Assembly: GCA_934162255.1 (NCBI GenBank)
Contig: CAKPIG010000004.1
Coordinates: 23,050-87,049, forward strand
DNA: 64,000 nt
Direction of reading: 5' to 3'
Source of the DNA: an uncultured Clostridia bacterium
GTDB taxonomy: Bacteria > Bacillota > Clostridia > TANB77 > CAG-508
The notes beneath the pieces are model-generated. The model was not told where the DNA came from. It searched no databases and worked only from the letters and a program-made list of their open reading frames with translations. Below, piece by piece: positions 2-30,972 of the stretch. How positions within the stretch are numbered: position 1 is the stretch's first letter; every line of letters starts with the position of its first letter. A program made the position numbers and the translations under genes.

Positions 2-1261
2 GGAAAAATAGCATTACAAAATATAAAAAATCTAGAAAACACTATTTTTTTAGGAGAACTTTCTCTTGACGGTAAAATTAATAGAATAAATGGAATTCTA
101 CCAATGTGTATGGAAGCAAAATCTTTAGGAATAAAAAGAGTAATATTATCTAAGTATAATGCAAATGAAGCAGCAATAATAGAAGAAATAGATATTGTTG
201 CAGTATCGAATTTACAAGAATTAATTGAATATTTAAATGGTAAAAAAATTATAGAAAAAACTATATCTAATAGTAAACTTGCAAATGAAAAATATATGAT
301 GGATTTTTCTGAAGTAAAAGGACAAGAATATGTAAAAAGAGCACTAGAAATTGCGGCAGCAGGAAATCATAATTGTCTTTTAATAGGTCCACCAGGATCA
401 GGAAAAACTATGCTTGTCAAAAGACTAAATACAATTATGCCAGATTTAACATTAGATGAAGCAATAGAAATTACTAAAATACATAGTATAGCAGGAGAAC
501 TAAAAAATGATGGAATTATAACAATAAGACCATTTAGAATGCCACATCATTCTGTAACAATAAATACAATAATAGGAGGAGGGAGAAATCCTAAACCTGG
601 GGAAATTAGTTTGGCTCATAAAGGAATACTATTTTTTGATGAAATGCCAGAATTTAATAAAAGTATTTTGGAATCTTTAAGAGAACCATTAGAAAATAAA
701 GAAATTTTTATAAACAGATTAAATGGTAATTATAAATTTCCATGTGATTTTATATTTATAGCAAGCATGAATCCATGTCCATGTGGAAATTATGGTGATA
801 CTATAAAAGAATGCAAATGTACAACAACAGAAATACGCAGATATGTGAATAAAATAAGTGAACCATTATTAGATAGAATAGATATTCATATTAATGTAAG
901 AAGGGCAGAATATGAGAAAATCAACTCAAAATTAAAATCTGAAAGTTCCGCAAAAATAAAAGAAAGAGTAAATATTGCAAAAAATATACAAAGAAATAGA
1001 TATAAGAAATATTTTATAAGCTCAAATTCTGAGTTATCGCCAGCGTTAATTGAAAAGTTTTGTAATATAGATGAAAAAGGTGAAAGGCTTTTAAAAAGTG
1101 CTTTTGTAAAACTAAAATTAAGTGCAAGAGCGTATCAAACAGTGTTGAAAATTGCAAGAACAATTGCAGATTTAGAAATGAAAGAAAATATAGAATATAC
1201 GCATATTGCAGAAGCAATACAATATAGGAGTTTAGATGGAAAATTTAATAATAGAATATAG
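2..1261 (+). CDS. comM: YifB/ComM family Mg-chelatase-like AAA+ ATPase. It is 5' partial: the reading frame is open from the window start.
   Basis: Frame 2 is open from nt 2. Walker A GPPGSGKT is present, with a Cys cluster CPCGNYG...C typical of the YifB/ComM C-terminal part. Confidence 0.9.
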   Translation, partial: GKIALQNIKNLENTIFLGELSLDGKINRINGILPMCMEAKSLGIKRVILSKYNANEAAIIEEIDIVAVSNLQELIEYLNGKKIIEKTISNSKLANEKYMMDFSEVKGQEYVKRALEIAAAGNHNCLLIGPPGSGKTMLVKRLNTIMPDLTLDEAIEITKIHSIAGELKNDGIITIRPFRMPHHSVTINTIIGGGRNPKPGEISLAHKGILFFDEMPEFNKSILESLREPLENKEIFINRLNGNYKFPCDFIFIASMNPCPCGNYGDTIKECKCTTTEIRRYVNKISEPLLDRIDIHINVRRAEYEKINSKLKSESSAKIKERVNIAKNIQRNRYKKYFISSNSELSPALIEKFCNIDEKGERLLKSAFVKLKLSARAYQTVLKIARTIADLEMKENIEYTHIAEAIQYRSLDGKFNNRI

Positions 1262-2114
1262 CAGCAGACATTATCCACCCAATTTAAGAAAAATAGATAA
1301 ACCTCCAAAGAGGTTATATATACAAGGAAATTTAGAAATATTAGAAAATCATGGAATTGCAGTTGTAGGCTCAAGAACTAACACACAATATGGTGAGAAA
1401 ATGTGTAAAATATTTACAAAAGAACTTGTAAAATATGATTTTAATATTATAAGTGGATTGGCCAAAGGAATAGATACAATTGCACATACAACTGCAATAA
1501 AAAATGGAGGAAAAACAATAGCAGTACTTCCATGTGGAATAAAAAATATATATCCAAAGGAAAATATTTCATTAGCAAAATCTATATTAGAAAATGGAGG
1601 ATTATTAGTAAGCGAATATGAAAATAATGAAAAAGCTGATTCAAATAAATTTCGAGAAAGAAATAGAATTGTTGCAGGACTTGGAATTGGAACATTAGTA
1701 ATAGAAGCTGGAGAAAAAAGTGGAACAAATATTACTGCAAGACATACAATTTTACAACAAAAAACACTATTTGCAATACCAAGCAGTCTAGAAAATAAAA
1801 AAGGAATAACAGCTAATAATTTAATAAAAAAAGGAGCAAATCTGGTTACAAAAATTGAGGACATATTAAATAAATATCCAGAAATTAATTTCAAGGTAAA
1901 AGATATAGATGAAAAAGATATATACATTGATATTCCAAAAGATTTAATAGAAATATATAAAACTATAAATGATGAACCTAAAACAATAGATGAAATCATA
2001 ATTAAAACTGGATTATCAGTAAATGAAGTGAGTTCTAAAATAACATTATTAGAAATTGAAGAAAAAATAATACAACTTTCAAATGGAAAATATGTAAGAA
2101 AGAATGATGAGTAA
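1236..2114 (+). CDS. dprA: DNA processing protein DprA (Smf), full Rossmann domain plus C-terminal winged-helix domain
   Basis: Motifs VVGSRTNTQYG, GLAKGIDTIAHTTA and NRIVAGL...GEKSGTNITA are present, with a C-terminal DML1-like tail. AGGAG lies 8 nt upstream of ATG. The gene overlaps the comM stop. Confidence 0.9.
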   Translation: MENLIIEYSSRHYPPNLRKIDKPPKRLYIQGNLEILENHGIAVVGSRTNTQYGEKMCKIFTKELVKYDFNIISGLAKGIDTIAHTTAIKNGGKTIAVLPCGIKNIYPKENISLAKSILENGGLLVSEYENNEKADSNKFRERNRIVAGLGIGTLVIEAGEKSGTNITARHTILQQKTLFAIPSSLENKKGITANNLIKKGANLVTKIEDILNKYPEINFKVKDIDEKDIYIDIPKDLIEIYKTINDEPKTIDEIIIKTGLSVNEVSSKITLLEIEEKIIQLSNGKYVRKNDE

Positions 2115-14469: not shown

Positions 14470-15192
14470 ATGGGAGCAGAAGAAAAGATTGAAGAATTAA
14501 AAAAAGACATAGGAAGAAGTATAGAAAATTGCAAAAGCACAGAGCAAATAGTGAGTGTAGTAAATAATTCATTTGAAAAACTTGAAAGATTTCTAATGGA
14601 AATTAATAATATATCAAGTATAAGTAGTATGATTGATGCTAAGAAAATAGAGATTCAACATATAATAGAAGAAAGAGAAAATAATAAAAGCGATAATAGA
14701 AAAAGAAATACAAACAGTGAATTAGATAATGTGGATATAAACAATGAAAATAGCAAAGAATATACAAGAACACAGATAGTAAATATCCTATCTGAAGAAG
14801 ATAATTCTAGAGAAACAGCTAATTTAGAAGGCCTTATAGATTCTGAAATGACAGATGTTTTAAATAAATCAATGGAACCATTGTTAAATATTAGAATGAT
14901 GATGGAAATAGGAGAAAGAGGATTAAGAAGCGGAAACGATTTAATTAGAAAATTATCAAGAGACGATGCAATGGAAATATATCAAATATTACAACATTCT
15001 GATGAAAAAGTAGTAGATAGGGTATTAGAAAAATACGATGAAGCAGTAGGAATAGATCATTTTAAAATGGGATTAAAACAAGGTGTTCCAACTCAAGAAG
15101 AACAAAAAAGAAATGTTGAAGAATTTTTGCAACAAACAGATGCCAAACAAGAAAAAAGTTCAATTGAGCTAAATCCAAATTGCTTAGAATAA
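14470..15192 (+). CDS. hypothetical protein, 240 aa, acidic, soluble
   Basis: Clean ORF with a GGAGAAAA RBS. No recognisable motifs. Confidence 0.6.
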   Translation: MGAEEKIEELKKDIGRSIENCKSTEQIVSVVNNSFEKLERFLMEINNISSISSMIDAKKIEIQHIIEERENNKSDNRKRNTNSELDNVDINNENSKEYTRTQIVNILSEEDNSRETANLEGLIDSEMTDVLNKSMEPLLNIRMMMEIGERGLRSGNDLIRKLSRDDAMEIYQILQHSDEKVVDRVLEKYDEAVGIDHFKMGLKQGVPTQEEQKRNVEEFLQQTDAKQEKSSIELNPNCLE

Positions 15193-15203
15193 AAGGAGAA
15201 AAT

Positions 15204-15437
15204 ATGGAAAACTATACATTTGAAGATATGTGGGTAGATTTGAAAAATGGATATCAAATATATTATACTTATGTAAGAAATAGATATGTATTATTTAAAA
15301 CAGCTAAAAACTGTTATACACAAAAATTATTATCAGATGACCCTAAAAATCCACAACCAAAGATGACAATGCTAACATTAAAAAGGGTAAAAGAGATATT
15401 CCCACACATGGAGGAAATTGAATATAAAATAATGTAG
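15204..15437 (+). CDS. hypothetical small protein, about 78 aa
   Basis: ATG at 15204 preceded by AAGGAGAAAAT. It sits 12 nt after the previous stop, so the two may be translationally coupled. Confidence 0.55.
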   Translation: MENYTFEDMWVDLKNGYQIYYTYVRNRYVLFKTAKNCYTQKLLSDDPKNPQPKMTMLTLKRVKEIFPHMEEIEYKIM

Positions 15438-15453
15438 CAAGGAGAAATACCAA

Positions 15454-16305
15454 ATGGAGATAATTGATGGAAAAAAAGTTGCGAGTAAAATAAGAGAAAA
15501 TTTAAAATATGAATGTGAAAATTTAAAAAAACAGGGAATACAACCAAAACTTGCAGTAATCATGGTAGGAGAAAATAAAGCATCACAAATATATGTAAGA
15601 AATAAAAGTAAAGCATGTGAAGAAATAGGAATAGAATTTGAAGAATTTTTATTAGATGAAAAAATAAAACAAGAAGAATTAATAGATTTAATAAAAAAAT
15701 TAAATGAAGATGAAAAAACACATGGAATACTCTTACAAAGTCCAATTCCATCACATTTAGATATAAATGAGGCAATACAAACTATATTACCAGAAAAAGA
15801 CGTTGATGGATTTAATCCAGTAAATGTAGGAAAATTAACATTAAATCAAAACACATTTGTATCATGTACTCCATATGGAATAATGAAATTATTTGAAGAA
15901 TATAAAATAGAATTAGAGGGGAAAAATATAGTAATAGTAGGGAGAAGCAATATTGTAGGAAAACCACTAATTCAATGTTGTTTAAACAAAAATGCAACAG
16001 TAACAATATGTCATTCAAAAACTAAAAATTTAAAACAATTTACACAAAATGCGGATATATTAATTGTTGCAATAGGAAAATCTAAATTTATAACTGAAGA
16101 TATGATAAAAAAAGATGCAGTTGTAATAGATGTAGGAATTAACCGAGGGGAAGATGGAAAAATAACAGGTGATGTAGATTTCGAAAATGCAAGTAAAAAA
16201 GCAAGCTATATAACACCAGTTCCAGGAGGAGTTGGACCAATGACAATAGCTATGTTAATGAATAATGTAATAAAAGCAGTAAAAGAAAAATATGAGGGGG
16301 CTTAA
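15454..16305 (+). CDS. folD: bifunctional methylenetetrahydrofolate dehydrogenase/cyclohydrolase FolD
   Basis: 283 aa with YVRNKSKACEEIGI, the GRSNIVGKP NAD(P)-binding loop and PVPGGVGPMT. Confidence 0.95.
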   Translation: MEIIDGKKVASKIRENLKYECENLKKQGIQPKLAVIMVGENKASQIYVRNKSKACEEIGIEFEEFLLDEKIKQEELIDLIKKLNEDEKTHGILLQSPIPSHLDINEAIQTILPEKDVDGFNPVNVGKLTLNQNTFVSCTPYGIMKLFEEYKIELEGKNIVIVGRSNIVGKPLIQCCLNKNATVTICHSKTKNLKQFTQNADILIVAIGKSKFITEDMIKKDAVVIDVGINRGEDGKITGDVDFENASKKASYITPVPGGVGPMTIAMLMNNVIKAVKEKYEGA

Positions 16306-16344
16306 TGCAAATAGCATTAGGTCCTATTTTTTGAAAGGAGTAAA

Positions 16345-17004
16345 ATGGAAATACAAGAAATAAAAATAAATTCAGAAAAATATCCAGATAAATTAAAAAA
16401 TATATATGATCCACCACAAGTATTATATGCAATAGGAAATATTGAAATCCTTAATCAACAAATAATTGCAATTGTAGGAACAAGAAAGGCAACTGAATAT
16501 GGTAAAAAAACAGCATTAGAATTATCAAAACAATTATCTCAAAAAGGAGTAAATATAATAAGTGGACTTGCTATAGGAATTGATTCATATGCTCATATGG
16601 GTACTATTTTTTCTAAACAAGGAAAAACAATTGCTATATTAGGTAGTCCGATAGAAAATATTTACCCTAAACAAAATATAAAACTTGCTAGAGAAATATT
16701 AAAAAAAGGTGGCTGTATAATAACTGAATATAAAAAAGGAATTCCAATAAAAAAGAAAAACTTTCCACAAAGAAATAGAATAATAAGTGGATTATCAGAT
16801 GGAATATTAGTAGTAGAAGCAACAGAAAAAAGTGGAGCATTAATAACAGCAGAATTTGGGTTAGAACAAGGGAAAGAAATATTTGCTATTCCAGGAGATA
16901 TAAATAAAGCTCAAAGTAGAGGTTGTAATTTATTAATAAAAGATGGAGCTAAAATAGTACTTTCAGCACAAGAAATATTGGAGGAAATTGAAATAAAAAC
17001 TTGA
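16345..17004 (+). CDS. DprA-like Rossmann-domain protein: second, truncated DprA paralogue lacking the N-terminal SAM and C-terminal winged-helix domains
   Basis: 219 aa with IVGTRKATEYG, GLAIGIDSYAH and NRIISGL...TEKSGALITA, which align motif-for-motif with the dprA at 1236-2114. Confidence 0.8.
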   Translation: MEIQEIKINSEKYPDKLKNIYDPPQVLYAIGNIEILNQQIIAIVGTRKATEYGKKTALELSKQLSQKGVNIISGLAIGIDSYAHMGTIFSKQGKTIAILGSPIENIYPKQNIKLAREILKKGGCIITEYKKGIPIKKKNFPQRNRIISGLSDGILVVEATEKSGALITAEFGLEQGKEIFAIPGDINKAQSRGCNLLIKDGAKIVLSAQEILEEIEIKT

Positions 17005-17067
17005 ATTTAAATATAAATATGTGTATACTAAGTATGAGTTCATAGGCATAACTCAAAAAGCCTAAAT

Positions 17068-18888
17068 GTGAAAACAAGGAATGATATTTATATGGATAAT
17101 GAAAAAAAATTATTAGATTTAATAAAAAAGATTAAAGTAACAAAAGAAAATGAACAAGAAATTACTAAAATGAAAAAATTAGTAAAAGAAGGAAATTATA
17201 CAGAAGTACTAAAAATCTTACAAAAAATAAATGATGAGAAAAAAAATAAAACAAAAAGTACTGAAAATGAAGAAGTAAAATTTGGAGAGGAACAAGACAT
17301 TGATGAAGAAGAACTTCAATTTTATAGAAAATATAAAACAAAAAAAGTAGTAAACAAGGAAAGCTTGTATCCACCAGAACTTATAGATAATGAACTAGAA
17401 GAAGATTATATAAGCTTATTATTGAATAATCCAAAAGCAATATCAATGTACTATATATTAGCAAAAGATAACTACTTTGATAATCCAAAAGTATTAAACT
17501 TGTATAAAATTGTACTATTCACAGAGGGAGAATCTTATGCACCACAAATAGCAAAAGATGACTATAACTTCGCAAAAGAAGGACCTGAAACATATGATGA
17601 AAAGAAAATGTACAAAGAAAGAGGTAAAGATTTAAAACTTGATTTTGAAGAAGTATATACAAGATTAAGGAAATTATTTGAAATAAGAAAATACTATTTG
17701 AAAACACCTATAAAAGAAATGCAAGATGAAATTATAGACATATTAAATTATGAATTATATGATAAAATGACAATTCAAGAAGTTGACGATGCAATAGAAC
17801 AAATAACAGCAACTGCAAAATTTAAAAAGTCAGTATTAAGCAAAGGAGTAACAGATTTCTTAATCGCAGGAGATAATAACCTTACAACAGGACTATCATT
17901 ACCATTTCCTATACTAAGTAGTGTATTTAAAGGAGTTAGAAAAGGAGAAACAATGTCATATGCAATGCCATCTAACTCAGGAAAAAGTAGGTTTACAATA
18001 AATCTAGCATCATATTTAGCATTTATACACAAGAAAAAAGTATTAATAATTTCAAACGAAATGTCAGACGAAAAAATGAGACTTTGTTTAATAACAACAG
18101 CAATAAATAATAAAGAAATACAAAAACTTCATGGAAAACACTTGACTAAAACAGAAGGAGAATTGCTTGAATTCAAATTTAGACCAGACAAAGGAGTAGA
18201 TGCTGAATTAGATGAAGATGGATTTGTTTTAAAGAAAGAAAATGAAAGTCAAAAAGCATTTGCAAAAAGATTGAATGAGATATCAACAGAATTTAGAGAT
18301 ACAATAGAAGTAACAAACTGGCTAGGACGTCAAGTAAACAATTCTATATATTTTGTAAATATAACAAACCATACAAATGACGAATTGGAAAAAATTATAT
18401 TAAACTATTATTATAAAGAAAAAATAGAATATGTATTTTATGATACTTTAAAAACAGATACAGAAAATATAGGAAATGCAGAAGAATTAAAGAAAACAGC
18501 AACAATACTTTCAAACCTAGCACAAAATTTAAACATATTCATAGCATCATCATTACAATTAACAGAAAGCAAAACATCACCATTAAATCTAGATATAAAT
18601 GATTTAGCGGTTAGTAGAACTGTAAAAGAAGTATTAGATACATTGTGCTTAATAAAACAAATACATAATGAAGATTTGGATGACTACGAATACTCACATG
18701 AAGAAGTAGATACAAAATTTTATGAATTAGAAAAATTTAAAGACCCAGATGTAAGATATTATGCTTGTGTTGTAGATAAAAACAGAGCTGGTGCTAAACC
18801 AAAGGTATTATTCAGACTAAATTTAGCATATAATATGTGGGAAGAATTAGGATATCTAAGACTAAAATCAGCAGCTGAAGAGGAATAA
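17068..18888 (+). CDS. divergent DnaB-family helicase-like protein with an extra N-terminal Lys/Glu-rich extension of about 95 aa
   Basis: A DnaB N-domain-like segment (EEDYISLLLNNPKAISMYY...FDNPKVLNLYKIV). Walker A AMPSNSGKSRF (compare ARPSMGKTAF). An SQL-type motif IASSLQLTES. A C-terminal KNRAGAKPKVLFRLNLAYNMWEEL (compare KQRNG...FENL). The start is GTG 17068 or ATG 17092, with AAGGA 11 nt upstream of the latter. Confidence 0.7.
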   Translation: MKTRNDIYMDNEKKLLDLIKKIKVTKENEQEITKMKKLVKEGNYTEVLKILQKINDEKKNKTKSTENEEVKFGEEQDIDEEELQFYRKYKTKKVVNKESLYPPELIDNELEEDYISLLLNNPKAISMYYILAKDNYFDNPKVLNLYKIVLFTEGESYAPQIAKDDYNFAKEGPETYDEKKMYKERGKDLKLDFEEVYTRLRKLFEIRKYYLKTPIKEMQDEIIDILNYELYDKMTIQEVDDAIEQITATAKFKKSVLSKGVTDFLIAGDNNLTTGLSLPFPILSSVFKGVRKGETMSYAMPSNSGKSRFTINLASYLAFIHKKKVLIISNEMSDEKMRLCLITTAINNKEIQKLHGKHLTKTEGELLEFKFRPDKGVDAELDEDGFVLKKENESQKAFAKRLNEISTEFRDTIEVTNWLGRQVNNSIYFVNITNHTNDELEKIILNYYYKEKIEYVFYDTLKTDTENIGNAEELKKTATILSNLAQNLNIFIASSLQLTESKTSPLNLDINDLAVSRTVKEVLDTLCLIKQIHNEDLDDYEYSHEEVDTKFYELEKFKDPDVRYYACVVDKNRAGAKPKVLFRLNLAYNMWEELGYLRLKSAAEEE

Positions 18889-18973
18889 GAATTAATAATT
18901 GGAAAAGTTCTAATAACCCCTGACTTAGAATACAATTAAACAAAAGTATTCTAAAGTTGGGGGTTAGACTTTT

Positions 18974-19237
18974 ATGAGAAACATAACAATAGAAGAGCGT
19001 GCAACAGAACTAGCACACTATATTATAGATTCAAAAGATACAGTTAGAGGAGCAGCTAAAAAATTTGGTATAAGTAAAAGTACAGTACACAAAGATGTAA
19101 CTGAAAGACTATCAAAGATTAACTCTAACTTAGCACATGAAGTGAGAAAAATCTTAGAAGAAAATAAATCTGAAAGACATATAAGAGGAGGAATGGCAAC
19201 AAAATTAAAATATATGAAAAAGAACAATCAAAAATAA
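18974..19237 (+). CDS. spoIIID: stage III sporulation protein D (SpoIIID transcriptional regulator)
   Basis: 87 aa with ERA.ELAHYII.SKDTVRGAAKKFGISKSTVHKDVTERL...RHIRGGMATKLKY, nearly collinear with B. subtilis SpoIIID. Confidence 0.92.
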   Translation: MRNITIEERATELAHYIIDSKDTVRGAAKKFGISKSTVHKDVTERLSKINSNLAHEVRKILEENKSERHIRGGMATKLKYMKKNNQK

Positions 19238-29186: not shown

Positions 29187-30089
29187 ATGTCAGAATTTAA
29201 ATCAGGATTTGTAGCAATATTAGGAAGAACTAATGTGGGAAAATCTACATTAGTAAATCTACTAGTAGGAGAAAAGGTTGCTGCAACGGCAAATAAAGTG
29301 CAAACAACAAGAACTGCGATAAAAGGAATAGTTAATAGAGAAAATTCACAAATAATATTTATAGATACACCAGGAATACATAAACCAAAAACAAAATTAA
29401 ATGAAACAATGGTAGAAACATCTTTTGGAGTTATAAATGATATAGACTTAATTTTATTTGTAATAGAGGCGACAAGTGATGAAATAGGCAGAGGAGATAT
29501 GAGAATACTAGAAAAGATTAGAGAATCACACAAAAAAGCAATATTAATCATAAATAAAATTGATTTAGTAAAAAAAGAAAAATTATTAAATCTAATTGAT
29601 ATATATCAAAAAGAATATAATTTCGAAGCGGTAATACCAATATCTTCGCTAAAGGAAAAATATAAAGACATAATATTAGACGAAATAGAAAAGAACTTAA
29701 AACCAGGTCCAGCATATTATAGTAAAGAAGAATATACTGACCAAACAATGAGGCAACTTGCAGAAGAAACAATAAGAGAAAAAGCATTAATGCTTTTACA
29801 AGACGAAGTACCACATGGAATATATGTAGAAGTAGAAAAAATGAAATTCAGAAAAAATAAAAACAAAGAAGAAATTTATGATATTGAAGCTACTATATAC
29901 TGCTTAAGAAATTCTCATAAAGGAATAATAATAGGAAAAGATGGTGCAATGCTAAAGAAAATAGGAAGCCTAGCAAGAATAGAAATGGAACAAATCTTTG
30001 GAACAAAAGTAAACTTAAAAACATGGGTAAAAGTAAAAGAAGATTGGCAAGATGATAGCTCTATTGTTAAGCGTTTCAAGTTACAGTAG
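29187..30089 (+). CDS. era: GTPase Era
   Basis: G1 GRTNVGKST, G3 DTPG and G4 NKID, with a C-terminal KH domain. 300 aa. Confidence 0.96.
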   Translation: MSEFKSGFVAILGRTNVGKSTLVNLLVGEKVAATANKVQTTRTAIKGIVNRENSQIIFIDTPGIHKPKTKLNETMVETSFGVINDIDLILFVIEATSDEIGRGDMRILEKIRESHKKAILIINKIDLVKKEKLLNLIDIYQKEYNFEAVIPISSLKEKYKDIILDEIEKNLKPGPAYYSKEEYTDQTMRQLAEETIREKALMLLQDEVPHGIYVEVEKMKFRKNKNKEEIYDIEATIYCLRNSHKGIIIGKDGAMLKKIGSLARIEMEQIFGTKVNLKTWVKVKEDWQDDSSIVKRFKLQ

Positions 30090-30143
30090 ATTTCTGAATA
30101 GAATATAAAAAATTGCAAATGATAGAGATGAGGAAGTGAGTTT

Positions 30144-30299
30144 ATGATAAAAAAGATAGCATGGGATACCTTTAAAAATACAGGAGATGTTAACACATAT
30201 TTAGAACTTAAACAAATACAAAATGTAGAAGAACAAATACAAGAACAAAAGGTGAAACAAAATGGGGACAATAAAAACAAATGGAATAATAATTTCTGA
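30144..30299 (+). CDS. yqzL: YqzL-like small protein (51 aa) between era and recO; not in the ORF track
   Basis: MIKKIAWDTFKNTGDVNTYLELKQ... matches the YqzL signature W..F..TG..DTYL..KE. The era-yqzL-recO synteny is conserved in Firmicutes. Its 3' end overlaps the recO start. Confidence 0.6.
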   Translation: MIKKIAWDTFKNTGDVNTYLELKQIQNVEEQIQEQKVKQNGDNKNKWNNNF

Positions 30300-30972
30300 A
30301 AATAATTTAGGGGATTACGATAAAATGTTAACAATGTTAACACCAGGATTAGGCAAAATATCATGTGTAGCAAAGGGCGCTCGAAGGCAGAGAAGCGCCT
30401 TACTTGCAGGCACACAGTTTTTGTGCTTCGGAGAATACCTAATGTACAAAGGAGCAAATACATACAACATAAACTCATGTGAAACAATAGAAATTTTTTA
30501 TAACTTAAGAACAGACTTAGACAAACTAAATTATGCCGTAGAAACAACTAAAATAATAAGAGATGTAACTGATGAAAATCAAAATAGTTACAAAATATTA
30601 CAATTATATTTAAATACATTATATACATTGTCAGAAACAGACAAAAATCCAGAATTAGTAATAAGCATATTCAAACTAAAATTACTATGTTTTCTAGGAT
30701 TTATGCCGCAAGTACAAGAGTGTGTAGATTGCAAACAAAAAGAAAATTTAAGAAGTTTCAGTTTAAAAGACAATGGATTCAAATGTGAGGCTTGTGCAAG
30801 ACAAGATAAAAGTGCATTAACAATGTCTGAAAGCACAGCAAATGCTATAAAATATATAGTTATGGCACCAGCAAAAAAATTATTTTCATTTAAGTTAAAA
30901 GATGAATCTTTAAATGAATTAAAACTAATAACAAAATTATACTTCGAAGAAAAAGTAGAAAAAAACTATTAG
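30262..30972 (+). CDS. recO: DNA repair protein RecO
   Basis: An N-terminal OB-fold region and a Zn-finger CVDC...CEAC. 236 aa. Confidence 0.9.
   Translation: MGTIKTNGIIISENNLGDYDKMLTMLTPGLGKISCVAKGARRQRSALLAGTQFLCFGEYLMYKGANTYNINSCETIEIFYNLRTDLDKLNYAVETTKIIRDVTDENQNSYKILQLYLNTLYTLSETDKNPELVISIFKLKLLCFLGFMPQVQECVDCKQKENLRSFSLKDNGFKCEACARQDKSALTMSESTANAIKYIVMAPAKKLFSFKLKDESLNELKLITKLYFEEKVEKNY

Follow-up and report, generated by a model that had tools for sequence, protein, structure and literature searches.

A phage-derived DnaB-type helicase of gut Clostridia and its clade-restricted DprA-like neighbour

The DNA considered here is a stretch of 64,000 nucleotides (nt; the window) from contig CAKPIG010000004.1 of an uncultured Clostridia bacterium, in which two genes lie one behind the other: dprA-short, which encodes a paralogue of DprA that consists of the Rossmann fold alone, and a gene for a phage-type helicase of the DnaB family. 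We consider it rather probable that these are two separate genes standing in a clade-specific order, and that the phage-derived helicase is second to an ordinary DnaB. The helicase group is a new, lineage-wide, phage-derived DnaB subfamily with a novel N-terminal module. It represents a phage replicative helicase that was captured, given this new module and kept under purifying selection in what are apparently hundreds of gut species with small genomes. Whether the protein is a second helicase or a swapped replisome motor, it bears on the exchange of replisome components between phages and their hosts, which has so far been documented for helicase loaders only.

The helicase as a member of the DnaB family

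In profile searches the helicase reaches 33.5 bits against Pfam DnaB_C (PF03796; cut-off 27), where it covers 81 of the 255 profile positions only, PF00772 is not detected in the Pfam search, and TIGR00665 gives 24 bits against an equivalog cut-off of 385 bits. The match to the family phrog_19 (DnaB-like replicative helicase) extends along the full length, from residue 17 to residue 595, with an E-value of 7e-27. Fundamental to the assignment are four motifs that are invariant among the helicase homologues (alignments A1, A2 and A5), namely PSNSGKS as Walker A, FYDTLKTD as Walker B, SLQL with the sensor glutamine and DKNRAG in the arginine-finger region. Across 63 sequences the residues G297, K298, D451, Q489, K563 and R565 are invariant, and about 500 residues are strongly conserved in the alignment of close homologues.

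The predicted fold is clearer than the profiles. AlphaFold gave a predicted local distance difference test score (pLDDT) of 61 when 16 close homologues were used as input and of 85.6 when distant relatives were added (model 2). This second model consists of a helical hairpin domain (amino acids (aa) ~95-245; pLDDT 81-96), a linker helix and a RecA-type ATPase domain (aa ~270-598; mostly >90). Foldseek searches of the PDB with this model return DnaB from Geobacillus, Aquifex, E. coli and Vibrio, the gp41 protein of T4, and 3BGW, which we take to be G40P of SPP1. The E-values for DnaB-type matches range from 3e-18 to about 1e-13, and the alignments (4ESV, 4NMN, 7T22, 8DTP, 3BGW) span ~520 columns and both tiers at 13-17% identity. 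The title of entry 3BGW is 'DnaB-like replicative helicase and its interactions with primase'.

With bacterial DnaB (DnaC in B. subtilis) the helicase therefore has in common a helical N-domain with its hairpin, a linker helix and a RecA-type C-domain, as well as the Walker A and B motifs, SxQL and the K/R-N-R-x-G arginine-finger region. Bacterial DnaB proteins are the best structural matches of the model, yet the identity is no higher than that given above, and the helicase differs from them by its extra N-terminal module of ~90 aa and by having no linkage to rplI. It also differs from RadA/Sms in that no zinc finger, KNRFG motif or Lon-like domain is detected, the architecture being that of DnaB and not of RadA. 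The helicase is thus a true two-tier DnaB-family protein with intact catalytic motifs, diverged almost beyond sequence recognition, and the description in an earlier note on this DNA of degenerate but recognisable DnaB motifs and N-domain is borne out by the weak profile scores, the invariant motifs and the full two-tier predicted fold. Such a protein would be expected to act as a ring-shaped, ATP-driven DNA helicase that moves 5'-to-3'.

Descent from phage replicative helicases

An exhaustive phmmer search of 1.84 billion cluster representatives gave 426 proteins at E <= 1e-3, among which there are no ordinary DnaB proteins. The family has a close group, with at least 53% identity and N-terminal acidic extensions of up to about 400 aa, and a distant group of about 500-620 aa with 26-42% identity and the Walker A sequence '(M)LSNxGK[ST]RF'. 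The members of the distant group are viral: P0130 is encoded on IMG/VR contigs of 128-198 kb, and other members are named 'replicative helicase [Caudoviricetes sp.]' by their sources. Within the phages the helicase gene is part of a replication module with the order SSB-like, Sak4-like, a 285-305-aa protein, helicase, primase, RecJ-like, polymerase and RecD2-like helicase, where the polymerase is Pol III alpha or another DNA polymerase.

The phage relative P0130 matches phrog_19 at 1.8e-39. The phage side of the family also retains a faint match to PF00772 (positions 6-102 of 103) and a likewise faint but full-length match to PF03796, and a search with B. subtilis DnaC finds the N-terminal halves of the phage relatives, such that these proteins bridge the family to DnaB. 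On these sequence relationships the helicase descends from the replicative helicases of large gut phages. A mobile-replicon ancestry was one of the options listed in the earlier note, and the kinship with phage replisome modules agrees with it.

The cellular proteins have nevertheless left the phage setting. The PHROG 19 phage helicases are their closest sequence relatives, sharing the Walker A sequence given above and 'DKNRxGxK', but the cellular clade is chromosomal and vertically inherited, lacks primase, RecJ-like and polymerase neighbours, and alone adds a three-helix module and an acidic linker. In the window and in the 84 related loci of the lineage that were compared with it, the helicase is encoded in the chromosome and not in a phage replication module, and no relics of a phage replisome (primase, RecJ-like, SSB-like) are found near it. 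Of the phage-module genes only Pol III alpha has counterparts beside it: in L026 a host-type DnaE of full length, in L032 a match that is weak and partial.

A few observations on individual contigs belong here. In L026 (13751-17281) the DnaE gene follows the helicase at a distance of about 2 kb, and a gene resembling a type IV secretion system coupling protein lies upstream; as a single case these neighbours are probably coincidental. Three viral-flagged IMG/VR contigs (L214, L215 and L216) carry a 58%-identical helicase of the cellular type at their extreme edge. In L215 the helicase is followed by minus-strand genes, including a 357-aa open reading frame (ORF) of integrase size, and then by plus-strand genes, one of which has weak similarity (35% identity) to a HTH_36/DnaD_N-like family. 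The edge position looks like that of a host flank beside a prophage. On the phage contig L087 (13425-17469) the DNA polymerase is encoded in two ORFs that match different parts of phrog_405, with an HNH/endonuclease gene between them, which suggests a gene split by a homing endonuclease.

The N-terminal module

What does the cellular clade add to the phage motor? In the AlphaFold2 model 2 the N-terminus forms three helices (aa 2-12, 21-33 and 36-49; pLDDT 75-94), followed by residues 51-88 with a pLDDT below 50, a disordered linker rich in Lys, Glu and Asp whose length differs between species. Alignments show this conserved three-helix module of ~50 aa, together with the variable acidic linker, throughout the cellular clade, alike in species with and without an adjacent DprA-short, and the module has no Pfam family match. 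The Lys/Glu-rich extension recorded in the earlier note is thus present, but it is common to the whole cellular clade and not unique to this genome. In P0122, P0123 and P0124 repeat-like expansions rich in Asp and Glu bring the protein to 691-889 aa, and the linker is therefore extremely elastic. Module and linker, gained in the cellular lineage, would likely act as an adaptor of the phage motor to host partners.

Distribution and inheritance of the helicase

A scan of GTDB with one genome per species gave at least 469 confirmed matches, from which 80 species loci were examined. All 80 come from metagenome-assembled genomes (MAGs) of uncultured gut Clostridia, for instance Clostridium sp. CAG:245, 28_12 and 26_21, and CAG:356 is also among the helicase homologues found by protein search. 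These loci probably belong to GTDB order TANB77, family CAG-508. Among uncultured low-GC gut Clostridia the helicase hence occurs in at least 80 species and probably in several hundred. Contigs of the lineage reach 1.5-1.7 Mb, so its genomes are small.

In 85 of 85 sequences the gene is intact and full-length with its motifs kept. Across the deepest split the helicase is ~60% identical, with UvrB at 77-80%, and a value of ~60% resembles a housekeeping-type rate for a DnaB-family protein. The neighbour-joining tree of the helicase is compatible with vertical descent, and local synteny is stable within sub-clades, while the genomic position of the gene varies widely between genera. As read from these comparisons, the helicase was fixed in the ancestor of the lineage and has since then been vertically inherited as a single stand-alone gene.

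DprA-short and its link to the helicase

DprA-short belongs, on its profile matches, to the DprA/Smf family. It matches Pfam DNA_processg_A (PF02481) at 1.1e-80 with 270 bits (cut-off 29.6) over profile positions 7-211 of 212, and TIGR00732 with 265 bits against an equivalog cut-off of 191. The complete Rossmann-fold domain is shared with DprA/Smf proteins such as those of S. pneumoniae (3UQZ) and H. pylori (4LJK), from which DprA-short differs in that neither a SAM nor a C-terminal winged-helix domain is found by profile search (no match to PF17782). It aligns to residues 76-282 of the S. pneumoniae protein, i.e. to all but the SAM domain, and its 219 aa leave no residues outside the Rossmann fold. 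Since members of the family vary in whether they have SAM and winged-helix domains, membership stands. The 120 homologues listed are 212-236 aa long, mostly 216-218, and those among them from other species are 63-74% identical. The matches and lengths together show a complete Rossmann-fold DprA, conserved as a protein of ~217 aa, in keeping with the earlier statement that the gene retains the Rossmann core alone.

The window contains a further, resident DprA, so that the earlier count of two such genes, one of them directly after comM, is correct. This dprA-long protein (292 aa) matches DNA_processg_A at 4.9e-70, DprA_WH at 3.8e-06 and TIGR00732 with 230 bits; it consists of the Rossmann fold and a winged helix and is also without a SAM domain. 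The two paralogues are 46% identical. As a second copy beside the comM-linked dprA, DprA-short is confined to one sub-lineage, in which it may have arisen or arrived, landing between folD and the helicase, and it would be a paralogous mediator, binding to single-stranded DNA (ssDNA) as well as loading RecA.

How tightly is this gene tied to the helicase? By tblastn, DprA-short is encoded directly upstream of the helicase in 26 of the 77 GTDB species with enough upstream sequence, as well as in four ENA loci and the window, and the linked loci are always ordered folD, dprA-short, helicase. In the remaining 51 species the helicase lies in more than 12 contexts (e.g. rnr/smpB with uvrB, or copA/PPIase with rusA/htpG), neither DprA nor folD is found within 10 kb of it, and no alternative partner recurs across these contexts. 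On the helicase tree the linked loci fall into one clade, inside which L017, L023, L026, L027 and L028 are without the linkage, as are the sister group (L025, L029 and L032) and all deeper branches. Even where the linkage is present dprA-short can be damaged beside an intact helicase, being split over three frames in L015 (9174-9823) and carrying an insertion of ~285 nt in L036 (8614-9522), which could reflect gene decay or errors of MAG sequencing or assembly. It is also the least conserved gene of the block, with identities of 57-72% for DprA-short, 62-78% for the helicase, 69-83% for FolD and 79-84% for LigA. No DprA was found near the phage helicases. A loader-like DprA in the phages was considered for the 305-aa protein upstream of the phage helicase and rejected, this protein being dissimilar to DprA. 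These comparisons indicate that the adjacency arose once and was broken repeatedly, and a gene order passed on by descent is the best reading of it. The earlier note named as a refutation that the two genes are never co-conserved in relatives; they do stay together within one clade, but not across the distribution of the helicase.

The spacer between the genes carries a sigma-A-type promoter-like element, which is kept as TTGAAA-17-(ATGTG)TATACT and scores at least 10 of 12 in 22 of the 30 dprA-linked loci. The same element is found 5' of the helicase in L025, L028, L029 and L032, all without dprA, and such a promoter occurs in 37 of 82 loci overall against a mean of 2.2 in shuffles; in L037, a member of the sub-clade L033-L038, it scores 9/12. 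The two genes are further flanked by two hairpins, one after folD (-17.3 kcal/mol, z = -3.97) and one after the helicase (-29.2 kcal/mol, z = -6.25), and in both cases 0 of 200 shuffles are as stable. We infer that in the window the helicase probably has a sigma-A-type promoter of its own and ends at a hairpin of its own. The 82 helicase upstream regions contain no LexA/Cheo box, and DnaA-box-like 9-mers are seen in five of them.

The search for an ordinary DnaB

One question that bears on the role of the helicase is whether its hosts also have an ordinary DnaB. The window and the 84 loci were searched by tblastn with E. coli DnaB, B. subtilis DnaC, L9, SsbA, DnaI and DnaG as probes, of which the two DnaB probes served as a check on one another (46% identity over 439 aa) and the B. 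subtilis one also picked up phage helicases. The probes for L9, Ssb, DnaI and DnaG, which were used without a positive control, gave no match in these loci, and the rplI-dnaB context typical of Firmicutes is not seen at the helicase in any of them. Exact-match look-ups of window proteins extended the sequence by 10 kb on the upstream side, where no dnaB is present; on the 3' side the one matching contig ends inside the window. A metagenome scan for the motif D-[LI]-RESG-x-IEQDAD in AT-rich codons found at least 120 canonical dnaB loci, many of them in marine samples. No contig of the lineage is among the matches listed, so the scan is uninformative on absence, and the best flanking UvrB among these matches is 60% identical, against 77-80% within the lineage. 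On L120, an unrelated low-GC contig, a 151-aa ORF overlaps the start of a 448-aa canonical DnaB, forming a putative rplI-dnaB pair. In the literature nothing was found on the helicase of this lineage or on replacement of DnaB; loss of dnaB is reported for tiny endosymbiont genomes, and phage-derived replacement for loaders only.

Competing explanations of the locus

Could the two proteins nonetheless work together? Within the folD clade only, DprA-short might serve the helicase as a dedicated loader or regulator; it would bind the RecA-type domain of the helicase, in a manner similar to its binding of RecA by DprA proteins, and place the helicase on ssDNA. If true, a DprA-like loader for a DnaB-like helicase would be a new helicase-loading principle, but the comparative evidence is against it and we regard it as improbable. 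In its favour, 26 species keep the two genes adjacent, most of them with 23-180 nt in between, co-transcription of the pair is probable in the sub-clade L033-L038, DprA-short is kept as a stable protein, and RecA, the natural client of DprA, shares its fold with the ATPase domain of DnaB. There is also the example of the DprA-like RqlI, which binds and controls the adjacent helicase RqlH (PMC4670107). The slot just upstream of a DnaB-type helicase encodes the loaders of phages and some bacteria, which have repeatedly been replaced by unrelated proteins (PMC5509034, PMC11087808). DprA-short shares this upstream position with the loaders (DnaC/DnaI, DciA, lambda P, DopE and SPP1 G39P), but it is dissimilar to every loader family and does not co-occur with the helicase outside one clade. 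In 51 of the 77 evaluable species the helicase occurs without DprA-short, and the linkage is gone from five members of the linked clade. The dprA-short gene looks frameshifted in L015 and contains an insertion in L036, and no gene of the block is less conserved. A conserved promoter stands between the two genes, the phage relatives are without DprA, and the N-terminal module of the helicase is the same with or without DprA-short. The proposal of the earlier note that the DprA-like protein acts as loader or dedicated partner is for these reasons not upheld beyond one clade. Any cooperation would, by analogy, be indirect, with DprA loading RecA and RecA recruiting the DnaB-type helicase. In B. 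subtilis transformation RecA loads a DnaB-type helicase downstream of DprA, and the DprA-RecA-RadA pathway, in which DprA, RecA and a DnaB-type helicase come together, makes RadA/Sms a functional analogue (PMC6755099). Because most species run the helicase without DprA-short, such cooperation would be dispensable. A further comparison is with RqlH-RqlI/PsyrTA and ShosTA, where a DprA homologue is likewise encoded beside a helicase that is often without its DprA-like partner, and it raises the idea that the pair is a toxin-antitoxin-like or anti-phage module akin to PsyrTA/RqlHI or ShosTA. DprA-short does match PADLOC ShosA (4.5e-66) and PsyrA (8.1e-32), RqlI/PsyrA neutralises an adjacent RecQ-like helicase, and rqlH often occurs without rqlI (PMC4670107); a structure of ShosA has been reported (PMC11961720). 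However, dprA-long outscores DprA-short against both profiles (235.5 vs 221.2 bits for ShosA, 112.3 vs 108.8 for PsyrA), and since an ordinary DprA paralogue scores higher the matches represent generic DprA homology. RqlH/PsyrT is a RecQ-like helicase with a toxic PRTase domain, unlike the DnaB-type helicase here, the gene order is reversed, and RqlI has 400 aa with extra N-terminal and helix-turn-helix regions, unlike DprA-short. The helicase has no PADLOC match and lacks the PRTase domain that makes RqlH and ShosT toxic, it is kept without the 'antitoxin' in most species, there is no defence-island context, and inheritance is stable and vertical. A defence or toxin-antitoxin role is consequently scarcely credible, and the PADLOC control with the ordinary paralogue led us to reject it.

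The remaining alternatives concern the helicase itself. That it is a decaying remnant of a prophage or of an integrative and conjugative element (ICE), without host function, is very unlikely: its phage ancestry, the phage-type neighbours (RusA, ORF6N, HTH_36/DnaD_N-like) in some DprA-less species and the three viral-flagged contigs that hold it at their edge could be taken that way, but 85 of 85 genes are full-length and motif-intact with conservation over about 500 aa, no other phage replisome piece lies nearby beyond the Pol III alpha matches in L026 and L032, and a contig-boundary position on viral contigs is expected of a host flank. More weight attaches to the converse idea that the phage-type helicase is the only DnaB-family helicase of these genomes of ~1.5-1.7 Mb and has replaced the ancestral DnaB as replicative helicase, its N-terminal module then adapting it to the host initiator, loader or primase; we think this possible, if doubtful. 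All species loci retrieved (at least 80) contain the gene, which probably occurs in hundreds of species, and its conservation is housekeeping-like with motifs intact. In the window it is preceded by a sigma-A-type promoter, is encoded on the leading strand and shows no mobile context, and the phage proteins related to it are replicative helicases. The host primase and polymerase are used by phage helicases such as SPP1 G40P, and redundant 600-aa genes are rarely kept in reduced genomes. Against this stand the lack of any precedent found in the literature, the small and biased part of the genomes that was sampled, the silence of the metagenome scan on absence (no lineage contig among the matches listed), the fact that rplI, ssb, dnaG and dnaI-like genes adjoin the helicase in no locus, and a genomic position that differs widely between genera. 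An order-level lineage of uncultured human and animal gut Clostridia that lost its ancestral DnaB and replicates its chromosome with a domesticated phage helicase and a new adaptor module is thus an unlikely outcome, though not a negligible one, and if true it would be the first case in which bacteria replaced the replicative helicase itself, rather than its loader, by a non-orthologous protein. We therefore keep to the reading of two separate genes with a second helicase, and guess that this helicase may be fork-associated and serve restart or recombination-dependent replication, with an ordinary DnaB elsewhere. Several points weigh against this preference. An ordinary DnaB elsewhere in the genome is assumed, and the two validated DnaB probes found no canonical DnaB in the window, the 10 kb upstream or the 1.47 Mb of lineage loci, a sample biased towards the helicase; this absence covers a small part of each genome and is weak evidence either way. 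The promoters and terminators are predicted from consensus and folding energy only, the adaptor role of the N-terminal module is pure inference, and in L033-L038 the genes are only 23-49 nt apart with the promoter undetected in 5 of 6, where the pair may be co-transcribed and a functional link may exist in that part of the lineage.

Gene models and features of the locus

The helicase ORF is open from a GTG at 17068 (17068-18888, 606 aa, in the ORF list), and the earlier note accordingly described a 606-aa protein 63 nt behind dprA-short. That ORF exists, but the true start is most likely the ATG at 17092: homologues begin at the equivalent of M9, the sequence AAGGAA lies 10 nt 5' of this ATG, and P0001, a database protein 99% identical to the helicase, has 598 aa. 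With this start the spacer is 87 nt and not 63. The locus is flanked by housekeeping genes with a uniform GC content of ~26%, and no recognisable mobile element is seen at either gene in the window, which fits the chromosomal, non-mobile setting described before.

Table 1. Positions of the genes, domains and predicted signals at the dprA-short-helicase locus, in window coordinates.
Feature	Position	Strand	Remarks
dprA-long, resident DprA	1236..2114	+	292 aa, directly after comM; context, outside the studied locus
folD	15454-16305		on the side upstream of dprA-short; from the ORF list
Terminator-like hairpin with U-tract, predicted	16297..16325	+	between folD and dprA-short
Shine-Dalgarno of dprA-short, GAAAGGAG	16333-16340	+	
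dprA-short	16345..17004	+	219 aa, ATG start; Rossmann-fold-only DprA paralogue
Sigma-A-type promoter-like element, TTGAAT-17 nt-TATACT	17001..17029	+	in the spacer; overlaps the dprA-short stop codon
Shine-Dalgarno of the helicase, AAGGAA	17076-17081	+	
Phage-type DnaB-family helicase	17092..18888	+	598 aa from ATG
Helicase N-terminal module, lineage-specific	17095..17355	+	three-helix bundle aa 2-49, linker aa ~51-88
Helicase DnaB-type N-terminal helical domain, hairpin and linker helix	17374..17826	+	aa ~95-245
Helicase RecA-type ATPase domain	17899..18885	+	aa ~270-598
Walker A, PSNSGKS	17968-17988	+	aa 293-299 in 598-aa numbering
Long hairpin in the helicase-spoIIID gap	18903..18973	+	probably a terminator or boundary
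spoIIID	18974-19237		downstream of the helicase; from the ORF list

Neighbouring genes and further observations

Upstream of folD the window contains two ORFs after ligA. The first (14470-15192, 240 aa), between ligA and an 85-aa ORF, is without a match in Pfam, PHROG or PADLOC and is absent from all 84 related loci; it looks like a strain-specific insertion. The second (15180-15437, 85 aa), in the ligA-folD interval, is 80-93% identical in 26 sequences (the window and 25 related loci) and belongs to no described family, and it represents a well-conserved small protein. Further along, the window carries an era-yqzL-recO cluster followed by glycosyltransferase genes (29187-30972). In B. subtilis we take the order after era-yqzL-recO to be glyQS-dnaG-sigA; with glycosyltransferase genes in that place, the primase gene of the window genome must lie elsewhere.

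Downstream of the helicase, the stretch up to spoIIID/orf300 varies between relatives. It contains an N6_Mtase/Eco57I block of the restriction-modification type in L001-L003, L020 and L024 (about 9.9-13.6 kb), and putative large serine recombinases, read by eye, lie within 7 kb of the helicase in L013, L014, L032, L044, L047 and L048, which suggests that the stretch is an insertion hot spot. In L071 (11402-13700), and also in L081, a direct repeat of 184 nt with 96% identity brackets an insert of ~2.1 kb with an ORF6N-domain gene, and the downstream copy of the repeat in L071 is a decayed piece of the 3' end of the helicase that has an internal deletion of 32 aa. The repeat and its decayed copy indicate that an element inserted into the 3' region of the helicase while the gene was kept intact. 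Finally, in a relative with a 1.565-Mb contig (L004, 10047-15389) the region downstream of the helicase encodes cohesin, dockerin, SH3 and Big_2 proteins together with a sortase, which hints at a cellulosome-like surface assembly in the lineage.

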